Shown: in pieces, positions 4,088 to 32,775 of the stretch
Numbering within the stretch: position 1 is the stretch's first letter
Layout of the letters: each line of letters opens with the position of its first letter
The notes under the pieces: generated by a model
What the model saw: only the letters and a program-made list of their open reading frames with translations
Databases searched by the model: none
Told to the model about the DNA's origin: nothing
Program-made: the position numbers and the translations under genes
NCBI GenBank assembly: GCA_037442745.1
Contig: JBBIPP010000003.1
Coordinates: forward strand, 30,568-94,567
Length of the DNA: 64,000 nt
Reading direction: 5' to 3'
Origin: an archaeon
Lineage (GTDB): Archaea; SpSt-1190; DYHY01

Positions 4088-4113
4088 TTTTTCTTATTCT
4101 CCCCTTGTTTTCC

Positions 4114-4512: not shown

Positions 4513-4518
4513 TCTTTA

Positions 4519-5334: not shown

Positions 5335-5337
5335 TTT

Positions 5338-15976: not shown

Positions 15977-18652
15977 CTATATCACGTAGAAGCTTTTCGC
16001 GAACCCGTTCGAAAACACTTCCCTGAACCTCTCCGTTCCCGCGCCGTCGAGAATGTATGTCCGGGTGAAAATGTTCCTGTCACCGCCTTTTGTTGCGTAA
16101 ATTGCCGCGCCCGGAATTAGTATTGCGCTTCCGGAATCCAGCTGGGCGCCGGACGAGTTTGTCTCAAAAACCCCGTCATAAGTAGCAATTGAGGAAAGTA
16201 CTGCTGCGCCCGCCTGTCCGGACACCCCTATTAGCGGGAGGGCAGTCCCGTTCTGGTCAACAATTGCAATGAAATATCCTCCGGAGGAATATATTCTTCC
16301 CTTGCCTAGCAGGGTGTCGGAATCCCTCAGATATGGGAACACTGCGTATTGGACGGGACGAAGGCCTATGCTTGAAGCCGCCGACATTTTTCCTATCATT
16401 GTGGAATCGTGCGTCATTAGCCTCGGGGGCTTTAGCTTGTTCTCAAAAGGGGAGTATCCGAAAATTAGATTTCCTCCTTCGGCCCGGAGATACGGCTCTA
16501 TTCTTGTCTTGTCCCCGACCCTCTCAAGGGAGACTTCCCCTTCGTTGAAAGGCGTTGTCAAGCCTATCTGGACTGTGCTAATTTCGCCAGCCTCGGGAAC
16601 CTGGACTTGCCCTTCCCTGCCGGAATAGACCTCCCTATAATTCACAAGGAGTTTGGCTGAATATTCGCCTTCCGGGAGTTCTGAGAGGTTGACGGAATAT
16701 CCGGAGCAGGTCTTTTGCCTTGGTCCGGGATTGTCCCCGACGCATTCGCCCTTGATTAATGTCTTTTCGGGAAGGAAGCGGGGATAGAAATCCTCCGCAT
16801 AAACCTCGTTGGAATATTCGTATGTCTTGTCCCCTTTTGAAAGGGTGAGAGTGACTATTGGATAGTGCATTGTTGTCATCCAGTCGGCCGCCCTGTTCTC
16901 GTCAGAATCAGTGAACATTAGCCCGAGCTCTTGGTTCATTTTCAATATCCTGTTTCCGCCGTCGGCAACAGATGGCCTCCTAGCGAAATACTGTATCCAG
17001 TAGCCATAGTCCCACCATGCGAGAACCGGGCTCTCTTTTGCGAGGTTCTGGTCGCTCCATTTGAAGTTCTCGAACCATTCGGAATTGACAGATGTCCTTA
17101 TTCCCGAAGCGGAACTGAGAACAGTTGGATAGAGCTGGACGAATATTGCGAGGACAATGAATGCGGCAGCCCATTTGGGAGCGGATTCGGGAAAATTCCT
17201 CGAAATTGCCCCTATTGCAATTGCAACTCCCGCAAGCCCGAGGAAAATATAGACAAGAATAGGCTCTTTCGAGAATCCGGCGAACAGGAATCCTGTTGAG
17301 ACAAGAATCCCCCCGAAAATCAGGGACAGCGACTTGTTCTTCGAGTTGCGGTATAGTGATGTTATTGCCTGGCCTGCGGCGAACGCGACTATTGGCGCAA
17401 GGCTAACGAAAAACCGGACGCCCCTGCTCGCAGAATAGAGGTTGAATGCAAGGAGGCAGGCAGTCAGCAAATCCTCGTCCCTCTTTGAGAAGAAGAGTGC
17501 AGGGAAAATCCCTAGGGAGAGCGCGAAAACAAGCCCAAGCTGGAGCCAATATGTGTTCGCGCCCTGGGCGAATGCTGGCTCCCATGGGAATGCCCATGAG
17601 GTCGGCTGGTTCTCGCCAACCGTCCCTCCGTGGATCGAGTATCTAAGGGGGTTTGAGAATTGGCGGGTTATTGAGGAGACTGTTTCAACAGGGTTGTTTC
17701 CTGTTGCAAGGAGGATTACGAGTCCGGCAAGGAGAGTGGCCACAACCGAAAGCCAGAGGAGGGTGCTGTTGGAAAGCTTTTTTTTCGGGAAAATTCTGTC
17801 AGAATATCTGAAGAAAAGATATGCTATTACCGGAAATGCCGTTGCTCCGTATAATGCGAGGTTCAGGGACGATTTCGCGAAAACGAGTCCTCCTGTGTTC
17901 CCATACCACAGGCGCATTATTACTGGAAAGATGACAAATGGGATTGTTCCAAGAACATTCGCTTTTGCCCTGTACCTAAATGCCTGGACTGCCGTGAAAA
18001 GCAGTACAGGAGCAACATAGAGAACGTATGAGGAAAGGGAGAGGGCGGCGAGCCCCATTGATATTCCGGCAAATGCCCCGAAAATCAGTATTGAGCCGAT
18101 TCTCTCCTCCTGAATATATCTGTAAACGAAATAAATGGAGATTGTCATTAAGAAGAACGCGGCAGTGTCCTTGTCAGTGAATCCGGCAACTGACCGAAAC
18201 ATTGCGCCCGGAACAATTGCGAAAAGGAGCGCTCCTATGAACCAGTCCTTCCCCGCCCTGTATCCTAGATAGGCGAGAACAATTACAGTCAGTATTGTGA
18301 ATATTGGCGCATACCATTTGGACGCCGATTTGACTCCCTCGAAGGTTGAAAGGCAAAATGGGTTTATTCTGCAGAGGAATGCGACGGAATATGTCGGGAC
18401 ATGGTAGTCCCCTCCGTCATATATCAGGGGGTAATACCGGTCAGTCTCGGAAGAGGGCAGTTCCCCTGTTCTGATAATTTCCTCCGCCTTGTTATGGAAA
18501 TACATTGTGTCGAACTCGAGAAGGTGCGGGTCGTCTAGGCTCTGTAGCCTCGTGAATAGTGTGAGAAGTATTGTTGCAAAGACTGCCAGAATCGCGAGTA
18601 TTCTTGCGAAATTTGCTCTTTTTTTGGGAAACTTGTTTTCGCTCTCTTGCAT
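15977..18652 (-). CDS. aglB: oligosaccharyltransferase AglB (STT3 family)
   Basis: 891 aa with a multi-TM N-terminal domain and the WWDYGYWI motif (LAWWDYGYWIQYF). Confidence 0.9.
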   Translation of the reverse strand: MQESENKFPKKRANFARILAILAVFATILLTLFTRLQSLDDPHLLEFDTMYFHNKAEEIIRTGELPSSETDRYYPLIYDGGDYHVPTYSVAFLCRINPFCLSTFEGVKSASKWYAPIFTILTVIVLAYLGYRAGKDWFIGALLFAIVPGAMFRSVAGFTDKDTAAFFLMTISIYFVYRYIQEERIGSILIFGAFAGISMGLAALSLSSYVLYVAPVLLFTAVQAFRYRAKANVLGTIPFVIFPVIMRLWYGNTGGLVFAKSSLNLALYGATAFPVIAYLFFRYSDRIFPKKKLSNSTLLWLSVVATLLAGLVILLATGNNPVETVSSITRQFSNPLRYSIHGGTVGENQPTSWAFPWEPAFAQGANTYWLQLGLVFALSLGIFPALFFSKRDEDLLTACLLAFNLYSASRGVRFFVSLAPIVAFAAGQAITSLYRNSKNKSLSLIFGGILVSTGFLFAGFSKEPILVYIFLGLAGVAIAIGAISRNFPESAPKWAAAFIVLAIFVQLYPTVLSSASGIRTSVNSEWFENFKWSDQNLAKESPVLAWWDYGYWIQYFARRPSVADGGNRILKMNQELGLMFTDSDENRAADWMTTMHYPIVTLTLSKGDKTYEYSNEVYAEDFYPRFLPEKTLIKGECVGDNPGPRQKTCSGYSVNLSELPEGEYSAKLLVNYREVYSGREGQVQVPEAGEISTVQIGLTTPFNEGEVSLERVGDKTRIEPYLRAEGGNLIFGYSPFENKLKPPRLMTHDSTMIGKMSAASSIGLRPVQYAVFPYLRDSDTLLGKGRIYSSGGYFIAIVDQNGTALPLIGVSGQAGAAVLSSIATYDGVFETNSSGAQLDSGSAILIPGAAIYATKGGDRNIFTRTYILDGAGTERFREVFSNGFAKSFYVI

Positions 18653-18740
18653 TTCGTCCGTTTGGCTCTTCTTGGGTGTTTTTTAAAACCTTTTTAGGGG
18701 AATTGTGTTTTAAAGCCGGGAAACCCCCCGTTTTCGGCAG

Positions 18741-19700
18741 ATGGGGCGACCGAGTTTCGTTGTTAGTGGTGGGGCGGGGTTCGTTGGTTCCGCGCTTGTC
18801 CGGGAGATTTTGGAATCCAGAAAAGGAACGCAAGTCATTGTAATTGACAATCTTTCCTCGGGGAAAAAGGAGAACATCCCTCCGGGAGCCTTCTTTTTGC
18901 CGATTGACCTCGCAAAAGAGTCTCCCGGCGAGATTTCCAGAGCAATTTCCGGAGCGGAAACTGTCTTCCATCTTGCCTCAAACGCCTCCGTTCCGAGAGG
19001 CGGAATTAACAGGTTCTTTGATTTGAAGAACAATGTCGAAGGGACTGTTAGGCTCCTTGAGGCGTGCGCGCTTTCGGGAAGCGTGAAAAGAATTGTCCTT
19101 GCATCGAGCTCCGCAGTATATGGTCTTCGGGCGGGGAGACGTCCCTCAGAGACCGCTCCTTGCGAGCCAATATCAATGTACGGGGCGTCGAAGCTCGCCT
19201 GCGAGGGGTATTTGTCCGCGTATTGCAACAATTTCGGGTTCGAAGGAAGCGTTTTCAGGATTGCGAACATTGTAGGAAGGGGGCAGGAGAGAGGCATTCT
19301 CCACGACATTTTCTCAAGGAAAGGCGACTTGGCTCTCTTCGGAAATGGCGCTGAGAAAAAATCCTATTTGCACGTGAATGACTGCGTTTCGGGAATTCTT
19401 GCGGGCGCCTTTTGGGGAGGCGCTGTTCCGGGGAAGGTGGAAACTTTCAACCTTGGCTCGGATTCGGCAATCTCCGTAAAGGCGCTGTCAGCAATTGCCC
19501 TCGGGGAAATCCGCAGGAAGACTGGGCGTTCGCCCGCCCTCTCTTTTTCGGGAAAACCGAGTTGGCCGGGAGACGTCCCTGAAATGCGCCTAAATTGCAG
19601 AAAGCTGAAAAGCATCGGCTGGATCCCTGAACTAAAAAAGAGCGCGGATGCTATTGAGCGTGCGGCAGAGGAACTTTCGGACAGGTGGCTTGGAAAATGA
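18741..19700 (+). CDS. NAD-dependent epimerase/dehydratase (UDP-sugar 4-epimerase-like SDR)
   Basis: 319 aa. GGAGFVGSALV Rossmann motif and a YGASK catalytic YxxxK. Confidence 0.8.
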   Translation: MGRPSFVVSGGAGFVGSALVREILESRKGTQVIVIDNLSSGKKENIPPGAFFLPIDLAKESPGEISRAISGAETVFHLASNASVPRGGINRFFDLKNNVEGTVRLLEACALSGSVKRIVLASSSAVYGLRAGRRPSETAPCEPISMYGASKLACEGYLSAYCNNFGFEGSVFRIANIVGRGQERGILHDIFSRKGDLALFGNGAEKKSYLHVNDCVSGILAGAFWGGAVPGKVETFNLGSDSAISVKALSAIALGEIRRKTGRSPALSFSGKPSWPGDVPEMRLNCRKLKSIGWIPELKKSADAIERAAEELSDRWLGK

Positions 19701-20584
19701 AAAGAAAAATATCTGTTATCTGCACTGTCCGAAACGAGGAGAGTGCGCTGAATGCGCTCGTTGATTCCATTCTTTCCCAGAAAAGGTTGCCTGATGAGAT
19801 AGTGTTCGTTGACGGGGGGTCTGTTGACCGGACGCTTGAAATCCTGAAAAGCTATGGAAAAAAGCTCCGGGTAATCTCGAGCCCCGGGGCGAACATTGCC
19901 GAGGGGAGAAACATTGCAATAAGGAGCGCGAAGGGGGAATGGGTTGCCTCAATTGATGGGGGATGCGTTGCGGACAAAGACTGGCTACTGAATCTTGAGA
20001 GGAAAATGTCGTTTGCTGATGTTGTCTCTGGCGCATATCTTCCTATTGGAAAAACTCGATTCGAAAGGGTTCAGGGAAGAGTTGTCGTGAAGAACCCGGA
20101 GAAGTTGGATTCGAAGAGTTTTCTTCCATCCTCCCGCTCAGTTGCTTTCAAGAAATCCGTCTGGCTTGCTGTCGGGGGCTATCCTGAGAACACATATACT
20201 GCGGAGGACACCCTTTTCGACATGAAACTGAAGCGGGCGGGCTTTAGGTTCGCTCTTGCGAGGGACGCGATTGTTTTCTGGAGAATGAGAGCGACCCTTT
20301 CAAAATTCGCAAAACAATTCTTCCTTTATGGCAAAGGGGACGGAAAAACCGGGCTCGTTTTCCGGATGCCGTTGAACCTCGCAATGGCAACCTGTTTCCT
20401 TCTAGCTTTTGCTCTCTTGTTCCTCGGGAATTTCTGGCTCCTTGGGGCAATTATGGGGGCGCTCGTTCTTGTGGGATTTTCAAAATCCCGGTCAGTTCAA
20501 GAATTCCCGATTGCCCTTCTTTTAGTGTCTGTGAAGAGGATTGCATATTCGGTGGGCGTTTTTTGGGGGCTTGTCCAAAAATGA
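19697..20584 (+). CDS. GT2 family glycosyltransferase
   Basis: ISVICTVRNEE...VFVDGGSVDRT...IDGG. ATGA start/stop overlap with the upstream epimerase indicates translational coupling. Confidence 0.75.
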   Translation: MKRKISVICTVRNEESALNALVDSILSQKRLPDEIVFVDGGSVDRTLEILKSYGKKLRVISSPGANIAEGRNIAIRSAKGEWVASIDGGCVADKDWLLNLERKMSFADVVSGAYLPIGKTRFERVQGRVVVKNPEKLDSKSFLPSSRSVAFKKSVWLAVGGYPENTYTAEDTLFDMKLKRAGFRFALARDAIVFWRMRATLSKFAKQFFLYGKGDGKTGLVFRMPLNLAMATCFLLAFALLFLGNFWLLGAIMGALVLVGFSKSRSVQEFPIALLLVSVKRIAYSVGVFWGLVQK

Positions 20585-21813
20585 AATTTCCCGGACCATC
20601 CTCCTTCGTGGGGAAAAAAAAGGATGCAATATTCCTCTCGGGTGCGAACCTGATGAATTATGCCCTCTCAATGCTTGCGGGGATTGTTGCCGCGGGAATT
20701 CTCGGGCCGGAGCAGTACGCAACAAAGGTTCTTGTTTTCTCAATTGTCGGCCTTGTGGCATCGTTCTCCGACCTCGGAATATCCTTTGCCGTAATGAAGG
20801 ATGGCGGGGGAAAGGGTGGCTCCAGGACGTTCTCATCGGGCTTGTGGCTGTCAATAATTTCCGGCGCAGTGTTTTTCGTACTCTTGTTCCCCGCATTCGT
20901 TCTTGTTGGCAGGGGATATGGAATATCTGAACCCTTTCTCTTTGCAATCTATGCGGGAACCGGGCTACTAAAGCAGATCTCGTCAATAGGATATTCCTAC
21001 CTTGTTTCGAGGGAAAGGGCGGGGGTTGCCGCTAGTCTAAACGCGGTTGCCGGAATTTCCTACTTAATTCTGGTCTTGGCGCTCACGTGGGCTCTTGGGC
21101 TTTTCGGATTCTTCCTTGCGGTCTTCCTCTCAAGCCTTCTAGACGCCTCTCTGAAACTTTTTTGGGCTTTCCGCGAACTGGGAAGGGCGCCCATTGCTTT
21201 TTCGGGATTCGGCCCTATTGAAAAATCGATTGTTACAACAGGGCTTGCCTCGACAGGAATGAGTTTGCTTTCATATGTCGCGCTGAATTCCTCGAAGTTC
21301 GCGCTTGGTCTCCTGTCAGACAGGGCCATTGTCGCATATTTCGCAATAGCGCTCCTTCCAATATATCCCATAATTGTAGTTTCCGGATCAATTGCTTCGA
21401 GCATTGTCCCAAGAGTCAGGAGGGCGCGGGGAAATGAAAGAATGAGGCTTGTCGGAAAATCTCTCCGCTATTCCGCTCTTGCCGGATTTGGGATAGCCTC
21501 CATTGCAGTGCCCGGCTATTGGATTCTGACAAACGCGTTCCTTCCAAAATACTCGCCTTCGCTTGCGCTCCTCGCGTTTCTTGCGGTTCCGATAGCTATT
21601 GAAGGTGGAATTAGCTCTATTTCGGCAACATTCCTATTGGCAATGGGCCGGAACCGGGAGGCGCTTTTTGCAAGGGCTGTCGGAGTTATCCCGATTCTGG
21701 TTCTGGGGCCGATCTTGACTTTGCAGTTCGGGGTCTGGGGGACAATTGCCGCTTTTTGGGCAGGCTCCCTTCTTGGGGGGGTTCTCCTCCTGAGAACAGT
21801 CCTGAAGAATTAA
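20581..21813 (+). CDS. Wzx-like polysaccharide/oligosaccharide flippase (MOP superfamily), copy 1
   Basis: About 410 aa, 12 predicted TM helices. ATGA overlap with the upstream GT2. Paralogous to 24426..25529. Confidence 0.7.
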   Translation: MKFPGPSSFVGKKKDAIFLSGANLMNYALSMLAGIVAAGILGPEQYATKVLVFSIVGLVASFSDLGISFAVMKDGGGKGGSRTFSSGLWLSIISGAVFFVLLFPAFVLVGRGYGISEPFLFAIYAGTGLLKQISSIGYSYLVSRERAGVAASLNAVAGISYLILVLALTWALGLFGFFLAVFLSSLLDASLKLFWAFRELGRAPIAFSGFGPIEKSIVTTGLASTGMSLLSYVALNSSKFALGLLSDRAIVAYFAIALLPIYPIIVVSGSIASSIVPRVRRARGNERMRLVGKSLRYSALAGFGIASIAVPGYWILTNAFLPKYSPSLALLAFLAVPIAIEGGISSISATFLLAMGRNREALFARAVGVIPILVLGPILTLQFGVWGTIAAFWAGSLLGGVLLLRTVLKN

Positions 21814-22931
21814 CGCAGTCTGCCAGAGAGGACTTGCTCGTATATTTTCCGGTATTTCTCAATTACGGTTTTTTCCGAATGGAATTTCTCAATATGCTTT
21901 CTCGCGGAAATCCTGTCCGAGTGCTTTAGGGACCGGACAGCCGAAAAGAACCCGGCTTTGTCCCTGAACTCCTTTATCGGAGCTCCCTTTTCGCATCCGC
22001 AATCTCCTGATACTCCGATAACTGGGACTCCTTCGGCCATTGATTCAAGGCCGTTATATCCAAGCCCCGCGGGCTCAAAAGTCACAATTGCCGACATTTT
22101 TGAGACTGCTCTTCTGACCTCTGCCGGGCTGGGGAGCCTGTAGAAAAATATCTTCTTCTCCGCGCCCTCCTTTTTTGCAAGGGCTTTTAGGGAGTTCTCG
22201 AGGGGCCCATATCCTATAATGTGAAGTTCCGCTGATTTGTCAATTTCGCGGGAATATTGGGCGAACCAAGACACTAGCGTGTCAAGACGTTTCAAGGGTA
22301 TGTATCTTGAAACTGAGCACAATCGCGTCCTATCGGGCGCTTTCCCGGGGCTTTTGGCGATTTTTGAGACCGCGTGCTGTATAACGACTTTTTTGTCCGA
22401 ATATGGATATATTTCTGAGAGCATTTTGGTGTTGAAAACGAGGAGTTCGCTTCGGCAAGCGGCAATTTCCGAGATCTTCCTGGCCAAACTGGATGCAACA
22501 ATTGATTTTGGGAATTTCCTCCCGGAAAACATTTTTGAGGCATAGTTTAGGCTCCCGTGAACGTGGGTTACTGTCGGCTTTTCGCAATACATTGAGTATA
22601 TTTCCCCGTTTGCGTGGCAGAGGTCGAACTTCCCCTTCCGGAAAATTGCCCGGATTTTTGGGCGAAGAATCGGGATGTTCAGGAGATGCTCTAGGGACAC
22701 GGGATCCTTTGACGGATAGAACCGCGTCCTTGTTGCAAAGAGCGCGCGTTTTTCCTTCGCCTGGGCTTCCTGAGCGGGCGAGCAGATGAACGCGTTTTCA
22801 TGAGATATTTTCGCTCGGGAGAGGGCAGAGTTGTGCCAAGAGAAGAATGTCTCTACTCCTGCAGGCTTGAGGGAGCCATCGGGAAGATAGGGATAATGGG
22901 TGAGTGTGAGGAGGTTCATTACAGGTTCCAA
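21810..22931 (-). CDS. GT4 family glycosyltransferase
   Basis: 373 aa. C-terminal E-x7-E motif (EPAGLGYNGLESMAEGVPVI). Confidence 0.7.
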   Translation of the reverse strand: MEPVMNLLTLTHYPYLPDGSLKPAGVETFFSWHNSALSRAKISHENAFICSPAQEAQAKEKRALFATRTRFYPSKDPVSLEHLLNIPILRPKIRAIFRKGKFDLCHANGEIYSMYCEKPTVTHVHGSLNYASKMFSGRKFPKSIVASSLARKISEIAACRSELLVFNTKMLSEIYPYSDKKVVIQHAVSKIAKSPGKAPDRTRLCSVSRYIPLKRLDTLVSWFAQYSREIDKSAELHIIGYGPLENSLKALAKKEGAEKKIFFYRLPSPAEVRRAVSKMSAIVTFEPAGLGYNGLESMAEGVPVIGVSGDCGCEKGAPIKEFRDKAGFFSAVRSLKHSDRISARKHIEKFHSEKTVIEKYRKIYEQVLSGRLR

Positions 22932-22973
22932 CTTTTCGCCTAGTATTTAAAATCTGGAGGTGGATTTCCACGG

Positions 22974-23273
22974 AAATGAGAATACTTCATGTCACGCCCT
23001 TTTTTTCTCCCCATATTGGCGGGGTCGAGAGACACGTCCTTGAGGTTTCCCGGTGCCTTGCTGAAAAGGGGCATTCCGTCTCTGTCTTCACTGTCGCCCA
23101 TGAAAAGGGGCTGTCTGAGAGGGAAACTATCGGACGAGTCAGGATAATCCGCGCCCCTTTCTGGGGAATGGGGTATTTCTCACGTCTCTTTTCGGCTTGG
23201 TGGTTTGTCATCAGGAACTGGAAGGAATTTCGGGAGTTCGACATAACCCATCTCCATGATTTTCCTGCTTTCG
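22974..23273 (+). repeat. direct repeat copy 1 (300 bp), near-identical to 25524..25784 except a 39-bp in-frame indel and about 3 SNPs
   Basis: Direct sequence comparison. Identity begins 2 nt before the ATG and ends after ...HDFPAF. Confidence 0.85.
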
Positions 23274-24028
23274 CCTGGCTCCTCTTTCTTCCGGAAAAAA
23301 AGACAATCACTTTCCATGGGTATGAAAGGGACCCTGTGACTCTCAAGCACAAGGTATTGAGGAAGATTGCCGAAAAATTCACCCGCTCGAACTTTTGCGT
23401 TGGAACGCATCTTGTCGGGCATTATGGCACGGCCTGCCCGAAAGAGAGGATATTGGTTGGCGGGGTTGATTCCGGAAAAATCAAAAGGCGGGCAGTTCCC
23501 TTCCGGAAAAAGGAACGGAAGAAAATATTGTTCCTTACGCGCCTCGCATGGGATACCCAGATAAGGGAATTCGTCCTCGCAATGAGGCACCTTCCCGGGT
23601 TTTCCCTCGAAGTTTATGGGGAAGGCCCTTTGAAAGAAGAGCTGACAAAACTCGCGAAAAGCGAGCGCCTTAAAGTTCGGTTCCTTGGAAAATGGCCGGG
23701 CGACTCTAACGACCTCTTCAGGAAATACAGGTTCGTCTTTGCCGCGCGACAACTGACAATTCTTGAGGCTCTCGGGAACGGGGCAATTGTCTTCTCAGTC
23801 CACACATCGGAAATAATGAAAAATCTCCTTATTGGAATGGGTTCCCCGAGGGAAACCCACATTCTTACGGGCTCGGTCGGGGAGCTGGCAGAGCGCTTTA
23901 GAGAAATTGCAGGGGAGCCGGAAAACTCCCTGCTCCTGCGTTCGGAGAAGGGGAAAAAATACGCCCTCTCGTTCGATTGGGAAAAGATTGCAAATAGCTA
24001 TCTGAGGGAGTATTCCCGGATTCTCTAA
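22976..24028 (+). CDS. GT4 family glycosyltransferase (copy A of a partially duplicated gene)
   Basis: 350 aa. MRILHVTPFFSPHIGGVERHV... typical GT4 N-terminus. First 300 bp are near-identical to the 5' end of 25526..26536. Confidence 0.75.
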   Translation: MRILHVTPFFSPHIGGVERHVLEVSRCLAEKGHSVSVFTVAHEKGLSERETIGRVRIIRAPFWGMGYFSRLFSAWWFVIRNWKEFREFDITHLHDFPAFAWLLFLPEKKTITFHGYERDPVTLKHKVLRKIAEKFTRSNFCVGTHLVGHYGTACPKERILVGGVDSGKIKRRAVPFRKKERKKILFLTRLAWDTQIREFVLAMRHLPGFSLEVYGEGPLKEELTKLAKSERLKVRFLGKWPGDSNDLFRKYRFVFAARQLTILEALGNGAIVFSVHTSEIMKNLLIGMGSPRETHILTGSVGELAERFREIAGEPENSLLLRSEKGKKYALSFDWEKIANSYLREYSRIL

Positions 24029-24037
24029 GGACAACTT

Positions 24038-24565
24038 TCACTTCTTTGCAAGGTTCGCGATTGTCTCCGCAATGAATTCCGCGTCCGCTTCCGAGACTGA
24101 TGCGTGGACAGGAAGAGCCAACACCTCTTTTGCGGCTTTTTCGGCCTGCGGGAGAATCTGGGCGTTCCATTCAGAATAGGATTTCTGCTTGTGAACGGGT
24201 ATCGGATAGTGGATTCCTGAGCCTATTCCCTTCTCTTTTAGTTTTTCAATAAGGGCGTCCCTGTCAAGGCCGTATTCGTCCGGGAGAACGCGTATAACAT
24301 ACTGGTGGAAAACGTGCTTCCTTCCTGGGAGGACTTTTGGGACAATAATTCCCGGGACTTTGGAGAGGCGGGCGGAGAGTATTTTCGCGTTCCGTCCCCT
24401 TGTCCAGTTCCTGTTATCGAGATGAGTGAGCTTCTTTGTCGCGTTCGCGGACCTCGGGATACAGTTCTCCCTTCTAAGAGAGATTGGGAGCAGAAAATCC
24501 GAAAAAGCCAGGCGTTTCCTCCTTTCAAGGGGTCTTGCGATAAACTCTCTGACTGTTTTTGTTTT
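24038..24565 (-). pseudogene. DegT/DnrJ/EryC1/StrS aminotransferase, N-terminally truncated remnant (C-terminal about 150 aa only, no start codon)
   Basis: Stop-to-stop frame with no Met translates to ...RKHVFHQYVIRVLPDEYGLDRDALIEKLKEKGIGSGIHYPIPVHKQ...LALPVHASVSEADAEFIAETI, the classic DegT C-terminus. It overlaps the start of flippase copy 2. Confidence 0.6.
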
Positions 24566-25529
24566 CTACTGGGTCGCCCTCTTGGCGTTCATCCCTATTG
24601 GGCGCGCTTATGGAATAGGAAACCCGTTCTTCCTAGTTTCCCTCTCTGCTGCATTCAGCATAAAGCAGATTGCCGCCCTCCTATTCTCATATTCTGCGGG
24701 AAAGAGGATGTTCAAACAGCTGTCAGAAGCAATTGTCCTCTCGGCAATTGCGTATTCCGTCCTAGCAATATTTCTGACAATGCTCTTCGGAATAAGAGGA
24801 CTTTTCTGGGCGATTCTTGCCGGTTCGATAATAGACGCGTTCCTAAAGGCTGGAATGGTGAACTTGCGCACGGCGGACGTCTGGGCCCTTGGAAAATCCT
24901 TCTTCAGGTTCGGCTCGCCTGAGGACAGGCTTCTCGTCTCCGGAGGTCTTGTTTTCATGGCATCAACCTGGTTCGCAACTGCGCTTCAGAATTATGACGA
25001 CCTCATTCTGGGGGCTTTCCATGAAAAAGGGCTTGTGTCGTATTATGCAGTTGCATACCTCCCGATTTTTCCGATGCTTGTTGCAGCAAACTCAATATTC
25101 GCAGCACCCCTTCCGGGAATCTCTTCCCTCTCTGGGCCCGAAAAAAGGAGGGTTTTTGGCAAGTCCGTGAAATACGCCTGCCTCGTCTCTTCCGCCTTGG
25201 CCATTGCCGGAATTCCCGCATATTTCTTTCTGACTGAATTCTTCCTCGAGAAATACGCGCTCTCAGCGACTCTTCTGACTTTCCTCGCAGTCCCGTTCAT
25301 AATAGAGTCCGGCGTGAATAACACAACAGTCAATTTCCTGATTGCGTTCGGCATGAACCGCGTGTCCTTTGCAATGAGGGGGATTCAGCTAACCATCTCG
25401 GTCATATTCGGCTTCTTCCTGATAAGGGAGTTCTGGATATGGGGAGCGGTCGCCTCCGTCTGGATGAGTTCTCTTTCAGGTCTTGCCCTCTCGGCTTTCT
25501 TCTACTTCAAGGGAGAATTTTTCAAATGA
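24426..25529 (+). CDS. Wzx-like flippase, copy 2 (GTG start directly after an in-frame TGA; lacks about 65 N-terminal residues relative to copy 1)
   Basis: FADLGIQFSLLREIGSRK aligns to residue about 68 of copy 1 (FSDLGISFAVMKDGGGK). ATGA-coupled to the downstream GT4. Confidence 0.55.
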   Translation: MSFFVAFADLGIQFSLLREIGSRKSEKARRFLLSRGLAINSLTVFVFYWVALLAFIPIGRAYGIGNPFFLVSLSAAFSIKQIAALLFSYSAGKRMFKQLSEAIVLSAIAYSVLAIFLTMLFGIRGLFWAILAGSIIDAFLKAGMVNLRTADVWALGKSFFRFGSPEDRLLVSGGLVFMASTWFATALQNYDDLILGAFHEKGLVSYYAVAYLPIFPMLVAANSIFAAPLPGISSLSGPEKRRVFGKSVKYACLVSSALAIAGIPAYFFLTEFFLEKYALSATLLTFLAVPFIIESGVNNTTVNFLIAFGMNRVSFAMRGIQLTISVIFGFFLIREFWIWGAVASVWMSSLSGLALSAFFYFKGEFFK

Positions 25530-25784
25530 GAATACTTCATGTCACGCCCTTTTTTTCTCCCCATATTGGCGGGGTCGAGAGACACGGCCTTGAGGTTTCC
25601 CGGTGCCTTGCTGAAAAGGGGCTGTCTGAAAGGGAAACTATCGGACGAGTCAGGATAATCCGCGCCCCTTTCTGGGGAATGGGGTATTTCTCACGTCTCT
25701 TTTCGGCTTGGTGGTTTGTCATCAGGAACTGGAAGGAATTTCGGGAGTTCGACATAACCCATCTCCATGATTTTCCTGCTTTCG
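25524..25784 (+). repeat. direct repeat copy 2 (261 bp) of 22974..23273
   Basis: Direct sequence comparison. Confidence 0.85.
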
Positions 25785-26536
25785 TATGGGCATTGCCACT
25801 CTTCGGGAAGAGAGCAATTACTTTTCATGGTTTTGAGCACGACCCGCCCAAGTTCTATAACAAATTGCTGAGGAAACTCGCGGAAAAGTCTGTCGGCTCC
25901 GTTTTCTGCGTGGGAAAATATCTTAGGAGAATTTATGGCACGAGATGTCTTGACAAGAACATAATTGTCGGGGGGGTTGAATGGAAGAGATTCTCGGGCA
26001 ATAGGAAAAGGATAAGGAATAAGATTGTTTTTCTGAGACGCCTTGAAGGGGACAACCATCCGTTGGAGTGTATTGAGGCGCTTTCCGGAACGGGAATCGG
26101 AATAGATTTCTACGGGAAAGGCTCTCTCGTCGCAAAGGCAAGGGCGTTTTCTGTTGAACGGGGGGTTTCGGCGAGATTTTTCGGAGAAACAAAACATCCA
26201 GAAAATATCCTTCCCAGATACGAACTGGCTTTTGCGTCAAAACAGCTCGCAATCCTCGAATCCCTTGCTTCCGGATGCGCCGTATTCTCGCTTCACTCTA
26301 GCAACCTCCAAAAAGAGCTTTTGAAAGGAATGGGTCTTCCGAGAAAAGTGGTCGCGGATTTCCTGGTTTCTGACATCAAGAAGGCTGGGAGAGAAATTTC
26401 CGCGAGAATGATATCAGGTGGCGGGACCGGTTCCGGGATATCTTTCCGGAGAAGGCTTGCGAGAAAGTTCGGCTGGGAGAAAGTTGCCGATACGTACGAG
26501 AGGGAATACTTACGTCTGTTCAATGACCTTCCCTGA
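25526..26536 (+). CDS. GT4 family glycosyltransferase (copy B; N-terminal 87 aa almost identical to copy A, remainder diverged)
   Basis: ATG at 25526 overlaps the flippase-2 stop (ATGA). MRILHVTPFFSPHIGGVERHG...; downstream is homologous but diverged from copy A. Confidence 0.7.
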   Translation: MRILHVTPFFSPHIGGVERHGLEVSRCLAEKGLSERETIGRVRIIRAPFWGMGYFSRLFSAWWFVIRNWKEFREFDITHLHDFPAFVWALPLFGKRAITFHGFEHDPPKFYNKLLRKLAEKSVGSVFCVGKYLRRIYGTRCLDKNIIVGGVEWKRFSGNRKRIRNKIVFLRRLEGDNHPLECIEALSGTGIGIDFYGKGSLVAKARAFSVERGVSARFFGETKHPENILPRYELAFASKQLAILESLASGCAVFSLHSSNLQKELLKGMGLPRKVVADFLVSDIKKAGREISARMISGGGTGSGISFRRRLARKFGWEKVADTYEREYLRLFNDLP

Positions 26537-27524
26537 AAACCTCGATCTTGTTCGTCCGCTCGAGCCATTTCTTGTATTTGGATATTTCCCTTAGATAGTC
26601 TGGAAAGATTTCCGAGAGTCTTGAGGGCGCGCGGGAATCTTTTTCTAAGACGAGCGGGTCGAGGAACCTTGCTTTTCTAGAGATTACATAGTCCCATTTT
26701 TTGTCGTTGAATTTTATTCTGGTCCTCTTCGATATGAGGGAGAGTTTTTCTCGTATTTTGAAGTTGGAATTCCTGACAAGCTTCGCCATGAACTCCTTTT
26801 CGGTCAGCTTCGTCAAGTCCTCCCCAGTTATTATCCCTATCCTCAGGCCTTCGGCGATTGCTTCTGCGAGGAATTTCGAGAAAGTGTTTTGGATCGGGCT
26901 CGCCCATTCAGAATAGGAGAGCTGGAGATATTTCTTAGATGCTAATAGGGCATTTCTCATCCCGGAGAACGCGAACATCCACCTTCCCCCGAAATCCAGC
27001 ATCTTGACAGATGCAAGTATCCTCTCCGCTTGGACCCTTGAGAGCTTACCGACAGTCACCCCGTCCCTGAGGAAATAGTCTATCCTGTCTGCCGAAAGAT
27101 CTGGGAGCTCTGCCGTGAGAAGGGGGTTCTCCCCCCTGATAACTTCCTTCAAGCTCAATCCGTGCCTTGAGAGTATCCCGGGGATTTCCGACGATTCGAG
27201 CGTTGCCTCGAAAATCTTGTCATGGTAGCTCTTCTCATCGCTATCGAATATCTTGTCAATCACGTGGGAGAATACTGTATGGGAAATGTCGTGGAGGAGC
27301 CCGGCCAGACACTCTTCCCTCGGGGCTCCGAACAGGACAAGTATGTGATAGACTCCTATCGAATGTTCGAGCCTTGTCGTGTTCTTGTGGGGATCCGAGA
27401 GAACGACAGCGCCGTATTGGTTTATCCCAGAGAGTCTCCTCATCGACTTGGACCTTATTATCGCCTCTGCCAGGGGATCGGATATTGAAATCCTTCCATA
27501 AACCTTGTCGTTCAGGGAAAGCAT
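26520..27524 (-). CDS. HD-domain metal-dependent phosphohydrolase
   Basis: 334 aa. HSIGV...LLHDISH...D motifs of the HD superfamily. Confidence 0.65.
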   Translation of the reverse strand: MLSLNDKVYGRISISDPLAEAIIRSKSMRRLSGINQYGAVVLSDPHKNTTRLEHSIGVYHILVLFGAPREECLAGLLHDISHTVFSHVIDKIFDSDEKSYHDKIFEATLESSEIPGILSRHGLSLKEVIRGENPLLTAELPDLSADRIDYFLRDGVTVGKLSRVQAERILASVKMLDFGGRWMFAFSGMRNALLASKKYLQLSYSEWASPIQNTFSKFLAEAIAEGLRIGIITGEDLTKLTEKEFMAKLVRNSNFKIREKLSLISKRTRIKFNDKKWDYVISRKARFLDPLVLEKDSRAPSRLSEIFPDYLREISKYKKWLERTNKIEVFREGH

Positions 27525-27600
27525 TCTCTTCGGAAAGGTTTTCCTGAAAAGGGTTTAATAAACTGTTCCTAGAAGCGTCCCGGTAAGAAGGCATACATAA

Positions 27601-28455
27601 TTGTTTAAAAGGCTGCTACGGTTCTTCTGGGAACATATGACTATTCGCCAAGGATTTTTCAGGAAAAGGGATTTCGTCGCGGTGATTCTTGCGGGCGGAG
27701 AGGGTTCAAGGATAGGACTCCCATTTTCCAAATGCCTCCTTCCGGTTGAGGAAGGCAGACCCCTCCTCCTAAAGCACATCAACTATCTCCATAAGGCAGG
27801 GATTAAAGAATGGATTTTCGTGATAAATCCTGCGCAGACGGACATATTGAAGTTCATTGCGAAGGAGACTCCGGAGGACACACGCTACCACATCGTCCTT
27901 CAGCCGGCTCCGGTCGGGATATCGGAGGCCCTGATGCGCGCGATCCCCTACATTCAGGAAGCGGACAACGCGATGGTCCTCCTTCCGGACACTTACATGA
28001 ACGGGGAGAACCCCTACGAAAAATTGAAGAAGGCGCATACAGCGGAGAAATCTCCTGGAGGGGTAACGCTCTGCCTCTGGTCGAAGGAGAACAATTTCGG
28101 AAGCCTCGATTTCGTGAAAACATCGGGAAATGTCTGGACTGAAATCGACCCGACCTTGAAGCACGACAGCAAGGGTTGGGGCTGGGGAGCGATCGCGTTC
28201 TCCGTTGATTCCCTCGCATCGAAGGAGAACCCATTTATACAGAAGGTCTATGGAAGAAACGAGAAAGTGATTGACAACATGGGCCTCCTCTTCACCGAAG
28301 TCAGGAAAACTGCGCTCATGCTTCCCTACAAGTATTGCAAGGTGAAAGGGGACCGGATTGACTGCGGGACAATCGAGGGCTTTACAAAGGCAGTCAATTA
28401 TGTCGGGCGAAGGGTCGGAGCCAAAGGGAAAGCACTAATAAAGAAAAGGAATTAG
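27601..28455 (+). CDS. sugar-phosphate nucleotidyltransferase (NTP_transferase family)
   Basis: VAVILAGGEGSRIG (G-x-G-x-R pyrophosphorylase motif). Real start may be the internal Met at about 27643. Confidence 0.65.
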   Translation: MFKRLLRFFWEHMTIRQGFFRKRDFVAVILAGGEGSRIGLPFSKCLLPVEEGRPLLLKHINYLHKAGIKEWIFVINPAQTDILKFIAKETPEDTRYHIVLQPAPVGISEALMRAIPYIQEADNAMVLLPDTYMNGENPYEKLKKAHTAEKSPGGVTLCLWSKENNFGSLDFVKTSGNVWTEIDPTLKHDSKGWGWGAIAFSVDSLASKENPFIQKVYGRNEKVIDNMGLLFTEVRKTALMLPYKYCKVKGDRIDCGTIEGFTKAVNYVGRRVGAKGKALIKKRN

Positions 28456-28462
28456 TTGGAAA

Positions 28463-29578
28463 TCAGTTTTTCCTCTCTGAGACTGCGAGAATTTCCCGCT
28501 CGATCTCTCCTGCTATCTTCTCCCATGAAAATTTTCGGGCGAATCCCCTCGAAATCCCGGGAACTCCCTTATTCTTGAGCGCCCTCTTCGCATTTCCTAT
28601 CTGCTTGAAAAATCCCGCTTTTCCATCGGAGAGGAATCCCGCCGGTAGAGGGGCAGTTACTTCGGGGAGGGACGCGGAATTCAATGTGACTGATATTTTT
28701 CCGCATGCGGAGGCCTCGAGGGGAGGGATGCCGAATCCTTCCCAGGAGGACGGATGGAGATAGATGTCTAGGGCGTTGAAGAATCCGTTCAGGTCCTTCT
28801 CTGGGAGGTTCTTAAGAAGGATCGCCCTTTTTCCTAGGGAATTTTTCTCGATAAAATCGAGATATTCCTTTTCCAGCTCCCCGCCGCCCGCAATCGCAAC
28901 AGTTACCGACTTGTCAAGTAAGGCATATTCCAGGAGATACTTGTGGTTCTTGTAGGGGACAAACCTCCCGATTGTTCCGAGGAAGAAGGCCTTCCTCGGC
29001 ACTCTGTATTTTCTCCGGAAGTTCTCTCCTTCTTTTTTGGATGGCTTCAGCCGTTCGGTGTCAATTCCGCAGTAAATCAAGCCATCCGACTTTCTAAAGT
29101 AGATTGCTTTCAGCTGACGCTCCATGTATTCGGAACAACATATGTTTCTTTTCGCGAGGAAAACCGTCGGGAATCCCGAAAGGTAGTTGTCTATCCAGCG
29201 GAGGGGATTTTTCAGAAACTCTGAGAAAACCGTGACTTGCCCCCAATAGTAGTTTATAGTCGGGATTCCGGAGAGAACTGCCGAGTTCGAAAGGATTGAG
29301 GTGTATGTGAATATGATGTCTGGGGAAATTTCTTTTATTTTATTCGGATAGAGGGAAAATTGCCTTATCCTTCCGAGAAAGGCTCCGCCATAAGGAACTG
29401 TTTCCGTTTTTATCCCCTCCTTCCTGATTAAATCAATCATTTCAGGCCGTGTGTTCTCGGAAAAGGTCAGGATTGTGACATCGTGGCCCTTTCTTCTCAT
29501 TGCCCTCGCTGCCTCAAAAATGAATCTTTGTTGCCCTGTCATAGATTTTGCGCTTGTGAGGGTGAAGAGTATTTTCAT
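28463..29578 (-). CDS. GT4 family glycosyltransferase
   Basis: Start at internal ATG 29578, ATGA-coupled to the upstream GT2. EGFGIPPLEASACG E-x7-E motif. Confidence 0.8.
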   Translation of the reverse strand: MKILFTLTSAKSMTGQQRFIFEAARAMRRKGHDVTILTFSENTRPEMIDLIRKEGIKTETVPYGGAFLGRIRQFSLYPNKIKEISPDIIFTYTSILSNSAVLSGIPTINYYWGQVTVFSEFLKNPLRWIDNYLSGFPTVFLAKRNICCSEYMERQLKAIYFRKSDGLIYCGIDTERLKPSKKEGENFRRKYRVPRKAFFLGTIGRFVPYKNHKYLLEYALLDKSVTVAIAGGGELEKEYLDFIEKNSLGKRAILLKNLPEKDLNGFFNALDIYLHPSSWEGFGIPPLEASACGKISVTLNSASLPEVTAPLPAGFLSDGKAGFFKQIGNAKRALKNKGVPGISRGFARKFSWEKIAGEIEREILAVSERKN

Positions 29579-30579
29579 TTCGAGACCTTCCTTATTATTG
29601 TCGATGCAATTAATTTCGCAGAGTTCGAAACAATGCAAAGAGGCCGTGCGACCGGCGCGAGGAGCCTGCTGGAAAGCGCTGTTTGGAAAAAGGTTCCGCC
29701 GAATTCCTTCGTTGAAAATTCCCTTATCTTCTCGGCAATCTCCCGGTTTCCCAAGGCAACGTTCTTCTCATACAGCCTGTCGGCAAGCTGTCGGGAACGG
29801 GAGATTATTTCTTCCCTTGACGGGATTTGAAGCCTTTTCGCGTGTTTCAGCGCCTCGAGATAGATCCTGTGGGTTTCCTCGAGATACATCGCATCCCGCC
29901 CAAACGAGATATTCGTCTTCCTAATTATGTCGGTTGCCAGAGGCTCTTTTATGTATGCTATTTTCTTCCCTGATAGAACTGTCAAGAGAAAGAAATAGAC
30001 GTCGAACGCCGCAGGGTATTTTCTGGGAAACCCCCCTATCTCCTTGAAGAGGGATTTCCGGAAAACTAGGGTCGTTATTCCTAATTCGAACCTGTTGCTC
30101 CAGCCTTTCACTAGAAGGACTTTGATGAAGTCGTTCTTTCCGAGCCTCTCCGGAATGTCAAAGACCCGCCTCTCTGAATATTTTCCGTCTTCGGTCGCCC
30201 TATAAAACCCCGAACAGACAATCCCGACATCCGGTTCCCGCTCCAGGATATCCAATGCCTTGCCGAGAAGCGTTGGCTCGTAGATGTTATCGTCGTGGAA
30301 AAGGGCGATGTATTTCCCGCGTGCGCCCTTTGCCGCCTCGTTGAAGTTCTCGAGCTGGAGTATTTTCTTCGGATGTATCTTGAACCGGACACGTGGATTT
30401 TTCAGCCCGCGCAGGTATTCCGCAGTGTCGTCATTTGACGCGCTGTCGGAAACAAATATCTCAAAGCTCCGCTCGGGCCTTGCCTCGGAGAGGAAAAATC
30501 TTACGTTCTTTTCGAGGAGCTCCCGACGGTTCATTGTCGGGATGCATATGGAGATTTCCGGATGTTTCCTTTCCGGCAA
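29575..30579 (-). CDS. GT2 family glycosyltransferase
   Basis: ISICIPTMNRRELLE...FVSDSASNDDT...FHDDD, GT-A DxD-type. Confidence 0.75.
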   Translation of the reverse strand: MPERKHPEISICIPTMNRRELLEKNVRFFLSEARPERSFEIFVSDSASNDDTAEYLRGLKNPRVRFKIHPKKILQLENFNEAAKGARGKYIALFHDDNIYEPTLLGKALDILEREPDVGIVCSGFYRATEDGKYSERRVFDIPERLGKNDFIKVLLVKGWSNRFELGITTLVFRKSLFKEIGGFPRKYPAAFDVYFFLLTVLSGKKIAYIKEPLATDIIRKTNISFGRDAMYLEETHRIYLEALKHAKRLQIPSREEIISRSRQLADRLYEKNVALGNREIAEKIREFSTKEFGGTFFQTALSSRLLAPVARPLCIVSNSAKLIASTIIRKVSK

Positions 30580-30585
30580 ACTGCA

Positions 30586-31641
30586 TCAGTTCTCCTCTAG
30601 TGTCCCGCGCTTCACTTTCTCGAAATCGGCAGATACCATTCTTTTCACGAGCTCCTTGAAAGCCACTTTCGGCTTCCAACCGAGCTCTTTTCTCGCCTTT
30701 TCAGGGTTCCCTATAAGATGCTCGACTTCTGCCGGCCTCATGTTGTCAGTTGTCGACACTATTAAAATTTGTCCTGTCTTTTCGTCGAATCCTTCCTCTT
30801 TTCCGCTCTTGTCCTTCCGCCAGGAGAGCTTCCAGCCGAGCTCCTTCGAGGCCTCTTCCGCGAACTCCCTCACGCTGTGGCACTCGCCGGTCGCAAGAAC
30901 ATAGTCGTCCGGGCTCTTCGCCTGGAGAATCCTCCACATCCCCTCCACATAATCGGGTGCATATCCCCAGTCTCTCTTCGCGTCGAGGTTCCCTAGATCT
31001 AGGGGAATCTTCCTCTCGCCCAGTTTTATCCTGGAGAGCTCTATTGTTATTTTCCTTGTAACGAACTGCGGGCCTCTCCTCTCGCTCTCGTGGTTGAATA
31101 ATATTCCGTTGACAGCGAACATTCCGTAGGACTCGCGGTAGTTCTTCACTGCCCAGAAAGCGAAGAGCTTTGAGAACCCGTATGGCGAACGGGGATAGAA
31201 CGGGGTTTTCTCTGTTTGGGGAATTTCGACAGCTTTCCCGAATAGTTCCGAGGTCGATGCCTGATAGATTTTCGTCTTCAGGCAGGACTGCCTGACCGCT
31301 TCCAGTAGCTTTAAGACTCCAAGGCCAGTCGCTTCGGCAGTCTCTATCGGCATGTCGAAGCTCGCTTTCACATGGGATTGCGCGGCGAGATTGTATATCT
31401 CGTCGGGCTTGGTTTTTCTCAGGATTGAGAGTATTGACATTAGGTCCGTCAGGTCCCCGTAATGGAGATGGAAGTCTGGATTGTCCCTTATCGCTCCTAT
31501 GCGCCAGGAAGTCGTCGCGTCAGACCTCCGGACAAGGCCGTGGACAACGTATCCTTTCGAAAGGAGAAGCTCCGCTAGATAAGAGCCGTCCTGGCCAACA
31601 ACGCCGGTTATCAATGCGGACTTTTTCTTCGGATTGAGCAT
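30586..31641 (-). CDS. gmd: GDP-mannose 4,6-dehydratase
   Basis: 351 aa. [32 protein letters not shown], hallmark GMD N-terminus. Confidence 0.85.
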
Positions 31642-31665: not shown

Positions 31666-32775
31666 TTATAATTTGTCCCGCTTTCCGGGGAGAATTCTTC
31701 CTATTTCAGCCGCTATCTGGGTGGCAGACCTGCCCTCTCCGAAAGCCAGTCTGGCGTTCCTGGCTATTTTCCATTTCCCGGCTTTTGCCTTCTTCAGGTG
31801 ATGGGCAATTTCCTCCGGGACAATTGAGCGAACGGACGCCCCTGTTCTCTCAGCCTCCGTCCTCTCGGAATGCCTCCTGAACTGGATTGACGGGACTCCG
31901 AGATAGCACGCCTCTTCTGTCTCCCCTCCGGCGTCGGTCAGTATTGCCGTCGCGTTCGAAAGGAGGGAAAGGAACTTTTTCTGTGGGAGGAATCCTTCAG
32001 TCCGGGCAGTTTTTGGAATTCTTATTTTGAACTTCTCGGCCTGCCTTTTCAGGTTCTCGGGAAGTATCAGTATTGTCGGAAGGGGCGAGAGCTCAATTGC
32101 CCTGAAGAAATTCCTGATCCGCTCCTTGCTCGTTATGTTCTCGTGCCGGTGGAGCTTTGCAATTGCGTATTTGCCCTTGGGAATTTTTGCGGATCCCTTG
32201 GATTTCTTCGAGCGCAAGACATCGATATTCGTGTTCCCGGTAACGAATATCCTTGACCTCTGCTTCCCCTCAGAGAGGAGGTTTTGCGCCGAGTGCCGGG
32301 TCGGGCAGAAGAAATAGTCTGAGAGGGAATCTGCAAGGCGCCTTGAGAGCTCTTCGGGGAAAGGCTCTCTTGCGCTCCCGGAGCGGAGTCCTGCCTCAAT
32401 GTGCGCAAGCTTCTTTCCGACAAGTTTCGCACCGATTGCCCCGGCAGTTGTTGTCATTGTGTCTCCGTGGACAAGGACAAGGGAGATTTTCCTGTCTTCC
32501 GAGAGTTTTTTCGAAACCCATCCGATTGCCCGAAGAGCCCAAGTCCCCGCCGAGAGCTTGGATGAAAACCTTCCCCTTCCCCGGGCAGAAGAGTCAAAGA
32601 CGTGCTTTGGCGGGCGCATCTTGTTCTCTTTTAGGGCGTCCTCGATATTGTGCTGGCCTGTGAAGAATATTTCGTATGGAATTCTCCTTTTCTCAAGTTC
32701 GGAGACTATTGGGGAGATTTTTATGAGTTCAGCAATTGTTCCTATTACGAATGCGGCTTTTTTGCCGGGGCTCAT
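31666..32775 (-). CDS. UDP-N-acetylglucosamine 2-epimerase (non-hydrolysing, WecB/MnaA-like)
   Basis: 369 aa. FVIGTIAELIKISPI...FTGQH...LVHGDTMTT motifs. Confidence 0.8.
   Translation of the reverse strand: MSPGKKAAFVIGTIAELIKISPIVSELEKRRIPYEIFFTGQHNIEDALKENKMRPPKHVFDSSARGRGRFSSKLSAGTWALRAIGWVSKKLSEDRKISLVLVHGDTMTTTAGAIGAKLVGKKLAHIEAGLRSGSAREPFPEELSRRLADSLSDYFFCPTRHSAQNLLSEGKQRSRIFVTGNTNIDVLRSKKSKGSAKIPKGKYAIAKLHRHENITSKERIRNFFRAIELSPLPTILILPENLKRQAEKFKIRIPKTARTEGFLPQKKFLSLLSNATAILTDAGGETEEACYLGVPSIQFRRHSERTEAERTGASVRSIVPEEIAHHLKKAKAGKWKIARNARLAFGEGRSATQIAAEIGRILPGKRDKL

Follow-up and report, generated by a model that had tools for sequence, protein, structure and literature searches.

A probable recombination scar between two truncated genes in the AglB-linked N-glycosylation cluster of a Micrarchaeota-like archaeon

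We analysed a 64,000-nt stretch of archaeal DNA (GenBank assembly GCA_037442745.1, contig JBBIPP010000003.1, positions 30,568 to 94,567 of the forward strand; hereafter the window, in whose own numbering all coordinates are given) that carries an N-glycosylation cluster built around the oligosaccharyltransferase AglB. In the variable centre of this cluster, the remains of a DegT-type sugar aminotransferase gene lie directly against a second, 5'-truncated gene for a Wzx-like flippase (flippase-2), an arrangement that is in good probability a recombination scar. Sequence alignments indicate that an ancestor had an intact DegT-type gene at this place, that a single non-homologous joint at ~24431-24438 cost it its first ~235 codons, and that the same joint fused the DegT remnant head to head with a divergent flippase-2 deprived of its first ~60-80 codons. 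The AglB protein shows 61% identity to its counterpart in the metagenome-assembled genome (MAG) JAZDJS01 (GCA_043803745.1; hereafter the relative), against 49% for Candidatus Micrarchaeum sp. DYHY01, which places the host, an uncultured organism represented solely by a MAG, as a Micrarchaeota-like DPANN archaeon. An earlier reading made from the letters alone (the sequence-only reading) had given the order flippase-1, an antisense GT4 glycosyltransferase, GT4-A, a minus-strand DegT relic, flippase-2 and GT4-B; this order and the strands were confirmed. At least three events are required by the sequence as we read it: the joint, a 305-bp copy between the two GT4 genes, and a 39-nt slippage deletion.

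The DegT/DnrJ/EryC1 aminotransferase remnant (24041..24433, minus strand, stop codon 24038-24040) comprises only the C-terminal ~130 codons of the gene. It was found to match positions 244-359 of the 360 in Pfam profile PF01041 (E 9e-19) and residues 239-358 of a 369-aa aminotransferase of known structure (PDB 7n63, E 1e-19), with 26 family members in the PDB at E<=1e-3 and alignment to the C-terminal parts of ArnB, QdtB and WbpE. The half that binds pyridoxal phosphate (PLP), with the Schiff-base-lysine large domain of a complete fold-type-I enzyme, is absent, and the sole ATG/GTG/TTG codons in the frame sit 26-27 codons before the stop. A search of the 64-kb window revealed no second DegT-like sequence and no DegT 5' part. 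The sequence-only reading had proposed a DegT relic spanning 24038..24565 that lacked a start and the PLP-binding half. Similarity to DegT in this interval is significant, both defects are present and no full-length DegT emerged on re-inspection of the window, but genuine DegT sequence reaches only ~24433; the remainder to 24565 is a stop-free antisense of flippase-2. An apparent extension of the homology to 24697 was an alignment artefact, as without composition adjustment it ends at 24433. With start codon and PLP-lysine domain gone, the gene is, by its sequence, dead, and we propose that it be annotated as a pseudogene.

The relative retains an intact 365-aa DegT ortholog in the same position and orientation, in keeping with the earlier proposal that an aminotransferase gene had been destroyed here. 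The remnant is 73% identical at the amino acid level to residues 236-365 of this protein, and the DNA is clearly homologous, the homology being bounded by the stop codon on one side and by ~24433 on the other. Differences at the three codon positions number 33/16/70, synonymous sites are saturated and the ratio of nonsynonymous to synonymous substitution rates (dN/dS) is ~0.07. The remnant contains no stop and no frameshift in 131 codons, and its 73% identity exceeds that of any flanking ortholog pair. A low dN/dS, an undisrupted frame and the highest identity together imply that the gene was functional for almost the whole period after the two lineages separated, and on this comparison the truncation must be recent. 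A word-index homolog search with the remnant returned only matches at 44% identity or less and no direct synteny.

The illegitimate recombination joint was located at 24426..24440 by aligning DNA and protein with the DegT of the relative and with flippase homologs. DegT-derived DNA extends to 24430-24433 or later, with the minus-strand codons K-L-T-H-L-D (24433-24416) still matching Q-L-A-H-L-E in the relative. The flippase-derived part opens at 24438-24441 or earlier, where the plus-strand flippase motif (V)AFADLG sets in. The two truncated genes stand head to head, their homologies abutting within ~10 nt (24431-24438) with no filler DNA. Flippase-2 opens with a GTG (24426-24428) directly after an in-frame TGA (24423-24425), as the sequence-only reading had reported, and both codons are antisense DegT sequence. 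Since the GTG lies within DegT-derived DNA, the flippase-2 start is an accident of open reading frame (ORF) calling and no native initiation site. No repeats of at least 20 nt were found at the joint, and no insertion sequence or other mobile element was seen there.

Flippase-2 (24426..25529, plus strand, 367 aa) and the upstream flippase-1 (20563..21813, plus strand, likely start ATG 20581) are paralogs, as had been claimed, with 31% identity over 352 aa (E 1e-53). Flippase-1 is a full-length Wzx-like transporter of the MOP superfamily (Pfam Polysacc_synt, PF01943, E 2e-12) and belongs to a conserved backbone of AglB, epimerase, GT2, flippase and antisense GT4, the flippase holding an equal position in relatives. 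Its AlphaFold2 model, built from a 3-sequence alignment, is of moderate confidence (predicted local distance difference test 69.5, predicted template-modelling score 0.69) and could be superposed along its entire length on MATE transporters, on the lipid III flippase WzxE (template-modelling score 0.69) and on MurJ. The assignment to a complete 12-helix, two-lobe MOP/Wzx fold holds on this model. Searching the PDB by sequence profile with this family gave no match, and the fold relatives were found by fold search instead. As the full-length and syntenically conserved copy, flippase-1 is the predicted working flippase for lipid-linked glycans.

The pairwise alignment begins at flippase-1 residue 67, and the flippase-2 start is equivalent to flippase-1 residue 62-67, near the end of transmembrane helix 2 (TM2) on the flippase-1 model. 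Alignments, hydropathy and the helix map agree that flippase-2 is without its first ~60-80 residues, close to the ~65 estimated previously; these comprise the conserved N-terminal motifs as well as TM1 and the greater part of TM2. The full-length homologs (402-456 aa) all carry 58-82 extra N-terminal residues relative to flippase-2, whose residues 1-20 aligned at residues 59-83 of every one of them. In the family alignment the missing segment holds the conserved motifs GRKR... and P.DY..K..VFSIV, and TM1-2 and the N-terminal motifs are present in all eight of the eight full-length family members. The absent N-terminus could not be recovered upstream in any frame or elsewhere in the 64 kb, so the truncation stands. 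Apparent flippase homology upstream of the TGA, to 24402, amounts to 2 identities in 8 hydrophobic residues and overlaps well-supported DegT homology, and was dismissed as chance. Lacking a native start, TM1-2 and the N-terminal motifs, flippase-2 is very probably dead to judge from the alignments, and we suggest annotating it as a pseudogene that is 5'-truncated and whose start codon is accidental. This goes beyond the sequence-only reading: because flippase-2 is cut at the same joint as DegT, the second flippase-GT4 cassette is at least partly defunct.

Flippase-2 has no Pfam match of its own and was assigned to the family through flippase-1; of ten family members examined, seven matched PF01943 and six PF13440 (best E 4e-27). 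The family is small: searching 1.84 billion cluster representatives exhaustively gave 12 matches at E<=1e-3, and NCBIfam contains no model for it. A word-index search with flippase-2 returned only flippase-2 itself, and a metagenome scan with the 3-sequence flippase alignment found no relatives. In each of the three Micrarchaeota-like genomes seen (window 15977..21813; 1612..6462 of locus L004; the joined loci L005 and L008), the genes for AglB, a GT2 and a Wzx-like flippase stand side by side. The Wzx-like family is a lineage-restricted candidate for an archaeal lipid-linked-oligosaccharide flippase.

In the relative, two loci overlapping by 26 nt allow the cluster to be read end to end. L005 is a small contig with the AglB start, epimerase, GT2 and flippase N-terminus, and L008 (contig JAZDJS010000015.1) starts with the best flippase-2 homolog (P0013, 40% identity). 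The backbone of carbamoyltransferase, GT2, AglB, epimerase, GT2, flippase and antisense GT4 is shared with the window at 35-67% amino acid identity. On the left, the variable region is flanked by the antisense GT4 (21810..22931, minus strand; Pfam Glycos_transf_1, E 3e-14), 53% identical to the syntenic antisense GT4 in L008, and on the right by a UDP-GlcNAc 2-epimerase-family gene (31666..32775, minus strand), 61% identical to the syntenic Epimerase_2 gene. Between these flanks the relative carries a GT4, an FkbM-type methyltransferase, the intact DegT on the minus strand, a GFO/IDH/MocA oxidoreductase, a hexapeptide acetyltransferase (Hexapep), a 3-hydroxyacyl-CoA dehydrogenase (3HCDH) and a thiolase. 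The DegT gene corresponds to the remnant. The relative's GT4 is unrelated to the window's genes, where all it matches is the GT4 at 28463..29638, at 29%, and no traces of GFO, Hexapep, methyltransferase, 3HCDH or thiolase could be detected in the window even at E 5. In turn, the fetched part of the relative's cluster, apart from the same 29% match, contains no orthologs of the genes at 26520..31641, and tblastn with GT4-A found no ortholog in the fetched stretch of the cluster in the relatives' loci. The closest available relative has the intact DegT and no flippase-2 block at this place, and the presence of a different module between conserved flanks agrees with the earlier description of a variable glycan locus.

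The remainder of the window-specific variable block (26520..31641) consists, by Pfam, of genes for an HD protein (minus strand), a sugar nucleotidyltransferase (plus), a GT4 (minus), a GT2 (minus) and a GDP-mannose 4,6-dehydratase (minus). The last (Gmd, 30586..31641) scores 460 bits against a cut-off of 415 for the NCBIfam equivalog TIGR01472, so the block encodes an entry into GDP-6-deoxyhexose synthesis. GDP-4-keto-6-deoxymannose is also the substrate of some DegT-family enzymes, the perosamine synthases. The relative's GFO protein finds its best NCBIfam match in the archaeal UDP-GlcNAc 3-dehydrogenase (E 1e-95), its 321 bits falling under the 450-bit cut-off, and from family membership its dehydrogenase, DegT and acetyltransferase would form a trio of the type that makes 3-acetamido (2,3-diacetamido) sugars. 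Sugars of the 2,3-diacetamido (GlcNAc3NAcA) type occur in methanococcal N-glycans (PMC2952790). The ancestral DegT of the window probably stood in such a three-gene module, with a UDP-GlcNAc 3-dehydrogenase-like gene and an acetyltransferase, and these two genes would have been lost through the same joint. Loss of an acetamido-sugar module, together with Gmd in the window block, suggests an N-glycan sugar composition that differs from that of the relative; the repertoire appears to have moved from a diacetamido-type sugar towards a GDP-mannose-derived 6-deoxyhexose. The sequence-only reading had held that the glycan of this strain was changed: the destruction of the amino-sugar module stands, and the change itself is only probable given the module loss and the Gmd block. 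The 3HCDH and thiolase genes of the relative (L008 6874..9008) lie between acetyltransferase and 2-epimerase within a glycosylation cluster, an unusual location for such genes.

GT4-A (22976..24028, plus strand; Pfam Glyco_transf_4, E 2e-17) is full length, and GT4-B (25526..26536, plus strand; Glyco_transf_4, E 9e-9) is its paralog, as had been stated, at 52% identity overall (E 5e-111). The start of GT4-B had been placed at 25439; the real start is the ATG at 25526, which overlaps the flippase-2 stop (ATGA) and is preceded by an AGGGAG motif ~10 nt upstream. The similarity of the two genes is uneven. The first 305 bp of GT4-A, from 2 nt before its ATG (repeat copy R1, 22974..23278), recur as the first 266 bp of GT4-B (R2, 25524..25789), which equal R1 minus 39 nt, and this direct repeat is 98-99% identical. 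Identity per 60 nt is 58-60 before ~23276 and then falls abruptly to 32-36; outside the patch the genes share ~55% of nucleotides and ~40% of amino acids. Neither the repeat nor the 39-nt deletion featured in the sequence-only reading. On this profile, the patch arose by recent non-reciprocal copying within the 5' region of a gene, or else marks a hybrid gene; it is the sole recent copy at the locus, and no cassette duplication.

The 39 nt missing from GT4-B have, in GT4-A, an 11-nt direct repeat at their borders, TGAAAAGGGGC (23062-23072 and 23101-23111, plus strand), and the repeat copies overlap by 11 nt in R2, a pattern typical of a slippage deletion between the 11-nt repeats. The deleted bases encode, in frame, the 13 residues HSVSVFTVAHEKG, which aligned with GHEVLVFTPSH of Pyrococcus abyssi glycogen synthase, a GT-B enzyme of solved structure. 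We take this segment to be the second strand (beta-2) of the GT-B N-terminal Rossmann-like domain. The deletion removes the predicted beta-2 strand, leaving GT4-B probably impaired, and the gene should be annotated as a deletion variant. For the C-terminal Glycos_transf_1 domain, GT4-A scored 25.6 bits against a cut-off of 26.4 and GT4-B gave no match. By eye, the first glutamate of the customary EX7E motif is missing from both GT4-A (FAARQLTILEA) and GT4-B (FASKQLAILES). The two proteins may belong to a divergent GT4 subfamily. The genes that are intact in this part of the cluster, namely flippase-1, GT4-A and the antisense GT4, presumably form the working set.

Independent support for the arrangement came from Logan (k=31) contigs of SRR11582162 and SRR11582163. 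These are 100% identical to the window and stop exactly 30 nt after entering a 305-bp repeat, giving a left piece to 23003, a middle piece of 2310 nt (23244..25553) and a right piece from 25755. The middle-piece contig includes the DegT/flippase-2 joint and was recorded in two samples. The repeat graph has two entries, from the antisense GT4 side and from the flippase-2 3' end, and two exits, into the 3' parts of GT4-A and GT4-B; with two of each, any chromosome that carries the middle piece has the order seen here.

The most likely origin of the joint is replacement, in which the old module gave way to the block flippase-2'-GT4-B-HD-nucleotidyltransferase-GT4-GT2-Gmd from a closely related genome. 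Recombination in or near the conserved epimerase flank would have formed the right end of the block and illegitimate joining the left. We favour this course because it is a single event and accounts for a second, incomplete flippase. After the joint, one GT4 gene received the first 305 bp of the other, and the 39-nt slippage in the GT4-B copy followed. A plain internal deletion in a once-larger cluster would yield the same joint, and we hold it to be a possible but on the whole less probable course. Here an ancestor with both the acetamido-sugar module and a complete flippase-2/GT4-B block would have lost all that lay between DegT codon ~235 and flippase-2 codon ~60, and the relative would have lost the block independently. 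One event would then leave two divergently oriented genes, each shorn of its 5' end, joined head to head without filler, and the composition of the block, which is like that of the backbone, fits such a history. Against this, the relative would need a second clean loss, of seven genes, at a site where its thiolase and Epimerase_2 lie 9 nt apart, and the ancestor would have had to carry two flippases; the searches brought up no genome in which both modules occur. A smaller deletion, of ~1 kb across a divergent DegT/flippase-2 promoter, was rejected as too small, given that the relative's dehydrogenase and acetyltransferase genes adjoined DegT.

The sequence-only reading had envisaged a recent duplication of a flippase-GT4 cassette, or a simple insertion, that split DegT. 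The gene pairs are paralogous and the GT4 genes share their near-identical 5' patch, but identity is not uniformly high across the unit: the flippases have diverged to 31% and the GT4 genes beyond the patch to the levels given above, and the two cassettes differ in architecture, flippase-1 being followed by an antisense gene. An insertion should have left the 5' two-thirds of DegT beyond the insert, and they are nowhere in the window; moreover, the supposedly inserted flippase is itself truncated. We regard this account as very improbable. Hardly more credible, indeed slightly less so, is an assembly artefact, in which the joint or the two-copy arrangement would be a chimera of metagenome strains. 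The source is a MAG, and as 305-bp repeats break the k=31 assemblies the path depends on one assembly; yet a separate and identical Logan contig from two samples spans the joint, which excludes mis-assembly at 24.0-24.6 kb, no repeat of at least 20 nt lies there, and the graph fixes the order. Somewhat less remote, and still improbable, is that flippase-2 and GT4-B are functional shortened variants, reached by read-through from GT4-A, that act as a second working pair. Both frames are uninterrupted, and the ATGA overlap and AGGGAG motif would suit translation of GT4-B. On the other side stand the absence of segments found in every full-length flippase, a start codon of accidental DegT-derived DNA, and the loss of a core strand from GT4-B; the event being recent by the evidence of the remnant, intact frames are expected even without selection.

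Several observations weigh against replacement and, in part, against the scar as a whole. The polarity comes from one relative at ~61% AglB identity, and no outgroup holds this part of the cluster, Ca. Micrarchaeum (L004) passing directly from flippase to nadE. No intact flippase-2 ortholog occurs in public data (best 40%), and replacement and deletion are not separable. GC content and GC content at third codon positions (GC3), taken per gene, are the same in the flippase-2'..Gmd block as in the backbone, so the block bears no foreign signature and no mark of import. A DegT/dehydrogenase/acetyltransferase set could lie elsewhere in the genome, outside the window; flippase-2 and GT4-B are still uninterrupted ORFs; and it is solely the long-contig assembly that gives the route across the 305-bp repeats and places the 39-nt deletion in the GT4-B copy. 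A recombination scar nevertheless remains our preferred interpretation.

Between the 305-bp repeats lie 2.25 kb (23279-25523) that hold flippase-2', the DegT remnant and the 3' part of GT4-A, and there is a slim chance that the repeats act as a recombination switch of phase-variation type in this DPANN archaeon. Excision through a crossover between the two repeats would then leave one hybrid GT4, in which the ~100 N-terminal residues common to both genes precede the C-terminal part of GT4-B, and the population would possess alternative glycosyltransferases and surface glycans. Absence of the excised variant is read from the long-contig assembly. The k=31 assemblies break exactly at the repeats; such breaks are compatible with coexisting variants and are no evidence for them.

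The cluster as a whole runs from carbamoyltransferase, GT2, AglB (15977..18652, minus strand; Pfam STT3, the conserved anchor), epimerase, GT2, flippase-1, antisense GT4, GT4-A and the DegT remnant to flippase-2, GT4-B, HD, nucleotidyltransferase, GT4, GT2, Gmd, the 2-epimerase-family gene and PMT_2. It combines STT3/AglB, glycosyltransferases, a flippase candidate and nucleotide-sugar enzymes in an arrangement kept in relatives, as in AglB-linked agl clusters. The 44 nt that separate the divergently oriented antisense GT4 and GT4-A genes (22932..22975) contain TATTTAAAA and GGAGGTG motifs that resemble an archaeal TATA box and ribosome-binding site for GT4-A. A scan for sigma-70 promoters and terminators gave hits at shuffle level; such a scan is not informative for an archaeon.

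Some 14 kb from the glycosylation cluster, GC content falls to 38% at 40001-41000 (window mean ~50%), just upstream of orc1/cdc6 (40840..42246), which is followed by the small (42335..43825) and large (43826..47380) subunits of DNA polymerase D. This interval is a candidate replication origin, in which only short inverted repeats were found. An ORF of 191 aa in the AT-rich stretch (40018..40593, minus strand) has no Pfam match.

The locus offers a dated, base-resolved example of N-glycan cluster remodelling in a poorly sampled DPANN lineage, in which the fresh remnant sets the polarity: acetamido-sugar module lost, GDP-mannose dehydratase block present. Bacterial O-antigen and capsule loci of the wzx/wzy-dependent type have a variable centre of glycosyltransferases, a Wzx flippase and nucleotide-sugar genes, with truncated genes at old joints. 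The cluster described here likewise shows conserved flanks, a variable centre, gene remnants and mosaic paralogous glycosyltransferases; unlike those loci, it is archaeal (DPANN) and tied to AglB, and its joint truncates two genes head to head. With the agl clusters of Haloferax and Methanococcus it shares aglB alongside GT2 and GT4 genes, sugar-nucleotide enzymes and a Wzx-like candidate flippase, while differing in that the lineage is known from genes alone and the flippase family is tiny. The WbpB/WbpE/WbpD pathway to 2,3-diacetamido sugars uses a 3-dehydrogenase, a DegT-family 3-aminotransferase and an N-acetyltransferase; the relative has the same three enzyme classes adjacent, and WbpE structures are among the PDB matches of the remnant. 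In contrast to that pathway, the window retains just the last third of the aminotransferase, from which specificity is not readable (the best matches are 7n63, ArnB/PseC-type enzymes and QdtB). Homology-facilitated illegitimate recombination has been described in naturally transformable bacteria. A block with one homologous side and one non-homologous joint resembles its products, and a short, sharply bounded, near-identical tract in otherwise divergent GT4 genes resembles gene conversion between paralogs; by analogy, these two mechanisms may have operated here. Set beside these systems, the finding is an ordinary footprint of glycan-locus turnover that leaves gene remnants behind, and represents no novel type of system.

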